DNA from: Escherichia phage T4
Direction: 5' to 3' (one strand)
Length of the DNA: 64,000 nucleotides
Sequence record: NC_000866.4
Shown: positions 41,591 to 42,410 of the stretch, piece after piece
Position numbering within the stretch: position 1 is the stretch's first letter
Layout: each line of letters opens with the position of its first letter
Notes under the pieces: generated by a model
Told to the model about the DNA's origin: nothing
What the model saw: the letters and a program-made list of their open reading frames with translations, nothing else
The model's database searches: none
Position numbers and translations under genes: made by a program

Positions 41591-41878
41591 TTACAAAAGA
41601 TTTTTAGCAATAATCTTGAGATGTGCCGCAGAAATGTGTTTAGCTTTAAACAACGCAGTTTCTTCAGCAGGAGAGATAACGATTGTAGCACCATCCTTTT
41701 TAGCAGACCACCCATCACCTAGGTAAACAGTACCTTTGATTTCTTCGCCATCAACCAGACTAATCATTGGTTTACCTTCTCGTCCTTTATTTGCTTTAAT
41801 AACTTCAGAAGTAAGAGTAGCTTCGGTAATGGTAGAAACCGGGGTAGTTGTAGAAGTAAATTCTTTAAATGTTTTCAT
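41591..41878 (-). CDS. ipI: internal protein I (IPI), injected anti-restriction protein
   Basis: 95 aa MKTFKEFTSTTTPVSTITEA...; capsid targeting N-terminus like ipII/ipIII. Confidence 0.85.
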   Translation of the reverse strand: MKTFKEFTSTTTPVSTITEATLTSEVIKANKGREGKPMISLVDGEEIKGTVYLGDGWSAKKDGATIVISPAEETALFKAKHISAAHLKIIAKNLL

Positions 41879-41909
41879 TTTTATTTTCCTAATTAATTTT
41901 GATGAGGTA

Positions 41910-41939
41910 ATAGTATCACTACCTCATCAGTATGTAAAC
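41910..41939 (-). promoter_or_regulatory. T4-type early promoter of ipI
   Basis: Minus strand GTTTAC-18-TACTAT; -10 sits between 9-bp inverted repeats gatgaggta/tacctcatc. Confidence 0.65.
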
Positions 41940-41951
41940 AACTTTGTGAAA

Positions 41952-42410
41952 TTATTTTAAATCATCTGCCCAATCGAGTTTAAGAGGCTCTTTGTATTCA
42001 CGATCTAATACGACCGGAATTTGTACATCACCGCTAAATGATAAGGGCCCAACATTATAAGACAATGTTATATGCGGTGTGTAATCATCAAAATCATGTG
42101 TAGCACCTAGTGCCCGCGCATACATGTGTCGACAGCGCAGATATTCAGAATCTAGCACAAGTACAAGAGTCGATCCATCTTGTGTTTTCCATACTTCTAA
42201 ATGTCCAGAAGAAGCTACTTCAAAACTTCCACTCGATGGAACATATGGAACATTTACTCTTGAATAACATATAGTCGAATGAATTTTTTCTCTAGGAACT
42301 GGATTAGGAACACGTAAAGAGCGCTGAAGTTCTTCCAGCGCATCAAGTGTTAATTCTGAAAACTTAGCTGCTACATAAAGACCCGTTGAAAAGTCTTTAA
42401 ATTCCATCAT
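41952..42410 (-). CDS. 57B: gp57B, anti-CBASS phosphodiesterase Acb1
   Basis: 152 aa ORF directly upstream of 57A; size and position as T4 57B. Confidence 0.8.

Follow-up and report, generated by a model that had tools for sequence, protein, structure and literature searches.

The ipI/57B (acb1) locus of bacteriophage T4 almost certainly consists of two independent, already characterized counter-defense genes, which are neighbors but are regulated and inherited separately. One encodes IPI, a pre-loaded injected protein, and the other encodes Acb1, a mid-infection enzyme tied to the tail-fiber chaperone operon. Both genes, their mechanisms, their structures, and their adjacency have already been published for T4 itself. 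The value of the present analysis is corrective: it places both identities on alignments and removes an anti-Pycsar attribution from Acb1. The present data cover the gene identities, the motifs and repeats, the overlap between genes, and the variability of the slot; the biochemical activities and expression timing of IPI and Acb1 come from the literature.

The window, a stretch of 64,000 nucleotides, could be assigned to bacteriophage T4 because positions 41300-42700 show 100% DNA identity to T4 record X03016 and 99.9% identity to complete T4 genomes (megablast, 50,697 phage records). Within this segment, the sole mismatch between the window and T4T (HM137666) is at 42634 (C vs T), in codon 6 of 57A, which encodes Val in the window (MSEQTVEQ); the 57A proteins of RB5 and 303Ecol101PP read MSEQTIEQ. 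The adjacency of ipI and 57B that had been reported was confirmed, with ORFs exactly at 41591-41878 and 41952-42410 on the minus strand and 73 nt between them. According to T4 annotations, genes 57A, 1, 3, and 2 lie upstream of 57B on the coding strand, and trna.4, trna.3, trna.2, and the tRNA cluster lie downstream of ipI (Table 1). The tRNA genes gave eight Rfam matches between 39176 and 40530, and at the gathering threshold no RNA family was detected in 41591-42410, the matches being to neighboring tRNA genes only. A 221-aa ORF with a GIY-YIG-type N-terminus (39253-39918, minus strand), which is the segB homing endonuclease in the T4T annotation, is found between a single tRNA match (39176-39247) and a cluster of seven tRNAs (39960-40530). 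PADLOC gave no match to a host defense-system component for any of the five products of the genes running from trna.2 through 57B. ORFs of 36-74 aa on the opposite strand across 41591-42410 were dismissed, as they are antisense to two strongly supported genes; they are annotated in no T4 record examined. For gene 1 (dNMP kinase), mechanical ORF calling gave a 254-aa frame (42649-43413, minus strand) with a TTG start at 43413, where T4 records have an ATG at 43374 and a 241-aa protein (MKLIFLSG...); the TTG extension, which runs into the PM1 motif, is probably not real.

Table 1. Features of the ipI/57B locus, in window coordinates
Feature	Positions	Strand	Evidence
trna.4, 61-aa predicted membrane protein	41329..41514	-	ORF; PHROG 1692, E 6e-35, function unknown
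PE1 repeat copy, between ipI and trna.4	41532..41585	-	-35 TTTACA 41571-41566; -10 TACTAT 41548-41543; hairpin 41534-41566
ipI, internal protein I precursor, 95 aa (stop included)	41591..41878	-	ORF, Pfam, PHROG, T4 records
Mature IPI*, 76 aa, injected inhibitor of GmrSD-type type IV restriction	41594..41821	-	Identity to 2JUB
Predicted capsid-targeting propeptide, ipI codons 1-19, MKTFKEFTSTTTPVSTITE, ending in Glu	41822..41878	-	2JUB starts at residue 20
PE2 repeat copy, upstream of ipI	41899..41952	-	-35 TTTACA 41938-41933; -10 TACTAT 41915-41910; hairpin 41900-41929
57B = acb1, anti-CBASS 2H phosphodiesterase, 152 aa (stop included)	41952..42410	-	Pfam, PDB, T4 records
57A, tail-fiber assembly chaperone	42407..42649	-	Pfam PF17594 GP57, E 1.9e-51
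PL1 late-promoter motif TATAAATA, inside gene 1	43005..43012	-	Motif search; X03016 annotation
PM1 MotA-box-type middle promoter upstream of gene 1, AATGCTTCA ... TATAAT	43398..43426	-	Regular-expression search; X03016 -35/-10

The preliminary description had identified the two products by synteny and size; both calls are now backed by sequence alignments and, for 57B, by an intact catalytic tetrad, and no observation spoke against either. The 95-aa ipI product covers 76 of the 76 positions of the Pfam family PF11634 IPI_T4 (E 7.3e-54, 180 bits, cutoff 25), corresponds to PHROG 4363 ("internal virion protein"), and is identical over residues 20-95 (76/76) to the solved IPI* (PDB 2JUB, chain A). 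Reading the translation against 2JUB places the propeptide MKTFKEFTSTTTPVSTITE directly before residue 1 of the mature chain. This propeptide is similar to MKTYQEFIAE, the one that ipII and ipIII carry elsewhere in the window, and an MKT[YF]xEF start is common to IPI, ipII, ipIII, and the extra IP genes of relatives. The N-terminus of IPI thus has the features of a capsid-targeting propeptide, its cleavage being predicted. These Pfam, 2JUB, and propeptide results bear out the description of IPI as a 95-aa protein with a capsid targeting sequence, and the alignment to T4 IPI that had been proposed as a check gave 100% DNA identity together with the PF11634 and 2JUB matches.

Two further ORFs on the minus strand, at 33416-33718 (100 aa) and 33834-34415 (193 aa), have exactly the same propeptide, MKTYQEFIAE, at their N-terminus and appear, by position and size, to be T4 ipII and ipIII, a second internal-protein locus. 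Among window ORFs of at least 40 aa, an MK[TS][YF]x[ED]F start was found only in ipI and these two. In X03016, deposited in 1985, mature IpI is annotated as 80 aa (1795-2034 of that record, window 41594-41833), a mat_peptide boundary that looks four residues too long when compared to the 76-residue 2JUB.

The propeptides of T4 internal proteins are N-terminal, 10-19 residues long and capsid-targeting, and the prohead protease gp21 cleaves them off (PMC9026906). IPI* is injected and neutralizes GmrSD-type type IV restriction of glucosyl-hmC DNA (PMC4437046). In the resulting scheme, IPI would be made with a 19-residue propeptide, incorporated into the core of the prohead, and cut back by gp21 to the 76-residue IPI*, which would then enter with the DNA and block GmrSD-type type IV enzymes that would otherwise cut glucosyl-hydroxymethylcytosine DNA.

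Residues 9-150 of the 57B product match profile positions 1-144 of 144 of the Pfam family PF23474 Acb1 (E 2.7e-60, 202.7 bits, cutoff 27), and residues 9-149 align with the Acb1 structures PDB 7T26/7T27 (E 4.2e-62). From the 141-residue alignment to 7T26 (E 4e-62), the 57B product is predicted to have a 2H phosphoesterase fold; the PDB copy searched holds no entry for T4 Acb1 itself. The catalytic HxT/HxT tetrad, read from the translation, is intact (H44-S-T46 and H113-I-T115), its two motifs align with HTT and HIT of the solved FBB1 Acb1, and the C-terminal lid LDWADDLK (residues 145-152) is present. Loss of the Acb1 catalytic residues had been named as the observation that would overturn the identification. 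With H44, T46, H113, and T115 all present in the alignment and the lid intact, that test fails to refute it, and the proposal that the 152-aa gp57B is Acb1 was upheld by PF23474, the 7T26 alignment, and the DNA identity to T4.

This agrees with what has been published for the T4 protein. Gene 57B was found to be Acb1 by activity-guided fractionation for 3'3'-cGAMP cleavage (PMC9117128). The same work assigned the tetrad to H44, T46, H113, and T115, reported metal-independent cleavage 3' of adenosine, and used H44A/H113A as an inactive control of T4 Acb1 (PMC9117128). Acb1 cleaves AMP-containing cyclic di- and trinucleotides of CBASS, and a T4 Δacb1 mutant lost the cGAMP-cleaving activity and displayed a >300-fold defect only under CBASS (PMC9117128). 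The C-terminal lid (T4 residues 145-152) is required for catalysis (bioRxiv 10.1101/2025.08.21.671373). Later work has added 2'3'-c-di-AMP and the cyclic oligoadenylates of type III CRISPR as further Acb1 substrates and has found that Acb1 activity trips the Panoptes system. On these grounds, 57B/acb1 would encode a metal-independent 2H phosphodiesterase.

One part of the functional label assigned to 57B has to be dropped. The protein had been described as an anti-CBASS/anti-Pycsar phosphodiesterase, of which the anti-CBASS part stands (PF23474, PMC9117128) and the anti-Pycsar part does not, since Acb1 is specific for CBASS signals and is not anti-Pycsar (PMC9117128). The anti-Pycsar nuclease is Apyc1, gene 147 of the Bacillus phage SBSphiJ, and the title of PMC9117128 covers both enzymes. 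In Pfam, the 57B product has no match to an MBL family, its sole match being Acb1. It is thus not expected to be an anti-Pycsar nuclease of the Apyc1 family, and Apyc1 is not encoded at this locus.

Each of the two genes had also been credited with an early promoter of its own. We found a 54-nt direct repeat (81% identity) at 41532-41585 and 41899-41952, each copy of which reads TTTCACAAAGTTGTTTACA ... TG-TACTAT on the minus strand, with a TTTACA-17-TACTAT core and an extended TG. Since a generic sigma-70 scan was at chance level (10 sites found vs 10.2 expected from shuffled sequence), only these two repeat-embedded sites stand out; they are also the only matches in the promoter scan with an extended -10 TG. 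Each copy holds an RNA hairpin as well, the one in PE2 with 13 pairs (66-nt fold, z -4.5). In the X03016 annotation, PE2 and a stem-loop precede ipI, while PE1 and a "pot. IpI terminator" follow it. On the minus strand, where the genes lie, the 41899-41952 copy precedes ipI, and the 41532-41585 copy comes after ipI and ahead of trna.4. The early promoters thus stand on either side of ipI, a swappable cassette, instead of serving each gene, and neither serves 57B. This distinction matters wherever promoter proximity or gene adjacency is used to predict the timing or linkage of phage counter-defense genes. Judging from motif matches and the 1985 annotation, PE2 is the predicted promoter of ipI, and PE1 that of trna.4, its first gene. 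The claim of an early promoter for each gene hence held for ipI (PE2) and failed for 57B, as the second early promoter serves trna.4. Elsewhere in the window, at ~9660-9720 on the minus strand, the 19-mer TTTCACAAAGTTGTTTACA occurs a third time in identical form, with GGTATTATTAAC and next an ATG coming after it. This looks like another T4 early promoter, one that lacks the ipI-type hairpin.

How, then, is 57B expressed? Its start codon overlaps the stop codon of 57A in an ATGA (junction GAAGAATGATGG, overlap GAATGATGG), and in each of the six genomes compared 57A and 57B either overlap or directly abut. A search for an early promoter of 57B in the 1 kb upstream on its strand returned only chance-level generic sigma-70 matches, and a motif search for the T4 early core GTTTAC found none upstream of 57B on that strand. 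Motifs of other classes were found there, namely PM1 and PL1 (Table 1). The PL1 sequence TATAAATA has no other copy on the minus strand in 41200-43700, and PL1 is likely the late start for 57A-57B transcripts. Inside gene 1, at 42883-42910 on the minus strand, we also noticed a MotA-box-like ATTTGCTTTA with TAAATT 11 nt later, which is absent from the X03016 annotation and is a possible internal middle promoter feeding 57A-57B. From these motifs and the 1985 annotation, we infer that the promoters feeding 57B are middle and late. In such an arrangement, 57B would be translationally linked to 57A and would share the middle and late transcripts of gene 1 and 57A. The position of 57B behind the 57A overlap and the middle/late promoter motifs fits the published expression of 57B/acb1, which is predominantly middle/late, and a smaller effect of acb1 knock-down has been ascribed to "later gene expression." Acb1 activity begins ~15 min into infection (PMC9117128). 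If 57B is transcribed at middle and late times, it follows that Acb1 would act from mid-infection.

Across six genomes (T4, RB5, 303Ecol101PP, G53, S16, and Wolf_ER13), the slot that separates 57B from trna.4 was found to contain zero to two CTS-bearing ORFs. It is empty in Klebsiella phage Wolf_ER13, where 57B is followed by one promoter and then by trna.4. It holds ipI in T4, Ip5 and then ipI in RB5, ipI and then a 77-aa ORF starting MKTYQEFIAE in 303Ecol101PP, an ipI homolog and then an 87-aa CTS-bearing ORF in G53, and two unrelated CTS-bearing ORFs in Salmonella phage S16. The flanks are fixed while the slot content varies: the 1-57A-57B block is conserved on one side, and trna.4 comes directly after the slot in all six genomes, even where the slot is empty, and so marks its far edge. 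T4, RB5, 303Ecol101PP, and Wolf_ER13 each have one more promoter repeat than they have cassettes, with three repeat copies and two cassettes in both 303Ecol101PP and RB5. With a strict promoter pattern, S16 and G53 have fewer promoter copies than cassettes. One promoter per cassette is thus what is seen in Tequatrovirus, and either the rule is not strict in other genera or their promoters have diverged. In S16, the first CTS-bearing ORF (2238-2549) overlaps the end of 57B, and the strict pattern detects no early promoter before it; in G53 (ORF at 2693-2956), the same pattern gives one promoter for two cassettes. The distribution of the two genes among phages also differs. In tblastn searches, Acb1 was detected in 1470 phage records, from phages of Escherichia, Klebsiella, Acinetobacter, Vibrio, Aeromonas, and other host groups, and IPI in 289 phage records only.

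These comparisons, and the second repeat copy that follows ipI and drives trna.4, make ipI a repeat-bracketed unit, which is best seen as a swappable injected-inhibitor cassette beside the conserved 1-57A-57B block. This slot corresponds to the polymorphic IP locus attributed in PMC2839356 to Repoila et al. 1994, and a recent preprint reports that another occupant of the T4 ipI slot, Bas37_0260, inhibits McrBC. Recombination between IP-locus repeats has been proposed by analogy (PMC2839356). Considering the six genomes together with the statements in that paper, the repeats may mediate cassette exchange.

Between the ipI slot and the tRNA cluster there are the small conserved genes trna.4, trna.3, and trna.2, all within 40628-41514 on the minus strand. 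They are downstream of ipI and fired from the same kind of early promoter. None of the three had a Pfam family or a PADLOC match, and for trna.3 and trna.2 no Pfam family was found even at E 0.1. A broader proposal, in which the ipI repeats are an active recombination substrate that swaps cassettes and trna.4, trna.3, and trna.2 are further counter-defense genes, is in our view speculative and rather improbable. If it were true, the anti-defense island would be larger than the two known genes.

The preliminary description had called ipI and 57B a counter-defense pair. Their adjacency and their counter-defense identities stand, but a co-transcribed or co-inherited unit does not, given the separate promoters and the 289 vs 1470 records. 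We found neither shared or parallel early transcription nor co-inheritance of ipI and 57B, which are separate transcription units with different timing. A co-regulated, co-inherited module, in which each gene has an immediate-early promoter and both act at DNA entry, would be in keeping with two adjacent genes on the same strand, 73 nt apart, with the frequent clustering of anti-defense genes, and with the view that acb1-ipI adjacency is consistent with an anti-defense island (Hobbs et al. 2022, PMC9117128). Such a module is nevertheless very unlikely, since a promoter and a 13-bp hairpin intervene between ipI and 57B, and 57B is coupled to 57A without an early promoter. Timing argues against it as well, with Acb1 activity appearing only at ~15 min and expression being middle/late, and so does the mode of action of IPI, which acts as a pre-made injected protein and not via early transcription. 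Finally, inheritance is not shared, as seen in the 289 IPI vs 1470 Acb1 records and in Wolf_ER13, where 57B is directly followed by trna.4. We therefore retain the reading of two independently regulated and inherited neighbors.

The function of each product could be contested too. For 57B, the alternative is a LigT-like 2'-5' RNA ligase or RNA-repair 2H enzyme that cleaves cyclic nucleotides as a side activity. The 2H superfamily includes LigT, the best PHROG match of the 57B product is PHROG 755, described as "RNA ligase," and many GenBank records of 57B carry that label. Against this stands a dedicated Pfam family, Acb1, which matches 57B end to end with 203 bits, and there is barely any probability left for the ligase: the T4 protein was isolated by 3'3'-cGAMP cleavage and the Δacb1 defect is seen only under CBASS (PMC9117128), and in HIDEN-SEQ acb1 becomes important on a CBASS host only. 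Because of the PHROG 755 description, many T4-like genomes label 57B/acb1 "RNA ligase" or "hypothetical protein," and the former label is a widespread annotation error for a gene of known function. A few deposited genomes have "anti-CBASS protein Acb1" or "cyclic phosphodiesterase" for 57B. As for IPI, it could be regarded as chiefly a structural or DNA-condensing head protein with a secondary role in anti-restriction, because it is basic, assembles together with the scaffolding core, and numbers ~360 copies in each head (PMC9026906). That this is its main role is extremely improbable, however, since IP mutants grow normally on standard hosts and a head-assembly defect occurs in the IPIII mutant only (PMC9026906), while one GmrSD variant is blocked by Ip1, another by Ip2, and a third by Ip3 (PMC12373910). 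An anti-CBASS phosphodiesterase and an injected inhibitor of type IV restriction are thus the functions we keep for 57B and ipI.

The 57B product is T4 Acb1 (gp57B, NP_049750.1; Hobbs et al. 2022, Nature 605:522, PMC9117128), the same gene with no sequence difference, and that paper draws the same acb1 neighbors, with 57A upstream and ipI downstream. The crystallized Acb1 of Erwinia phage FBB1 (7T26/7T27) has both HxT motifs in register with T4 57B, although it comes from a different phage and has many substitutions relative to T4 57B. Like Acb1, Apyc1 is encoded by a phage and degrades a cyclic nucleotide that serves as an immune signal, but it is an unrelated, Zn-dependent protein of MBL fold that acts on the cyclic mononucleotides cCMP/cUMP (PMC9117128). 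The ipI product is T4 IPI* (PDB 2JUB; Bair, Rifat and Black 2007; Rifat et al. 2008), again the same gene, with no sequence difference. In its genetic setting, ipI is like the PeSL cassettes of RB49/phi1 (Arbiol et al. 2010, PMC2839356) and the repeats at the IP locus of T-even phages (Repoila et al. 1994): a small accessory gene in a hyperplastic slot is flanked by repeats that combine an early promoter with a stem-loop, and their copy number tracks the number of cassettes. The T-even IP elements are analogs of PeSL and not homologs, with T4 early promoters and weaker, AT-rich stems (PMC2839356).
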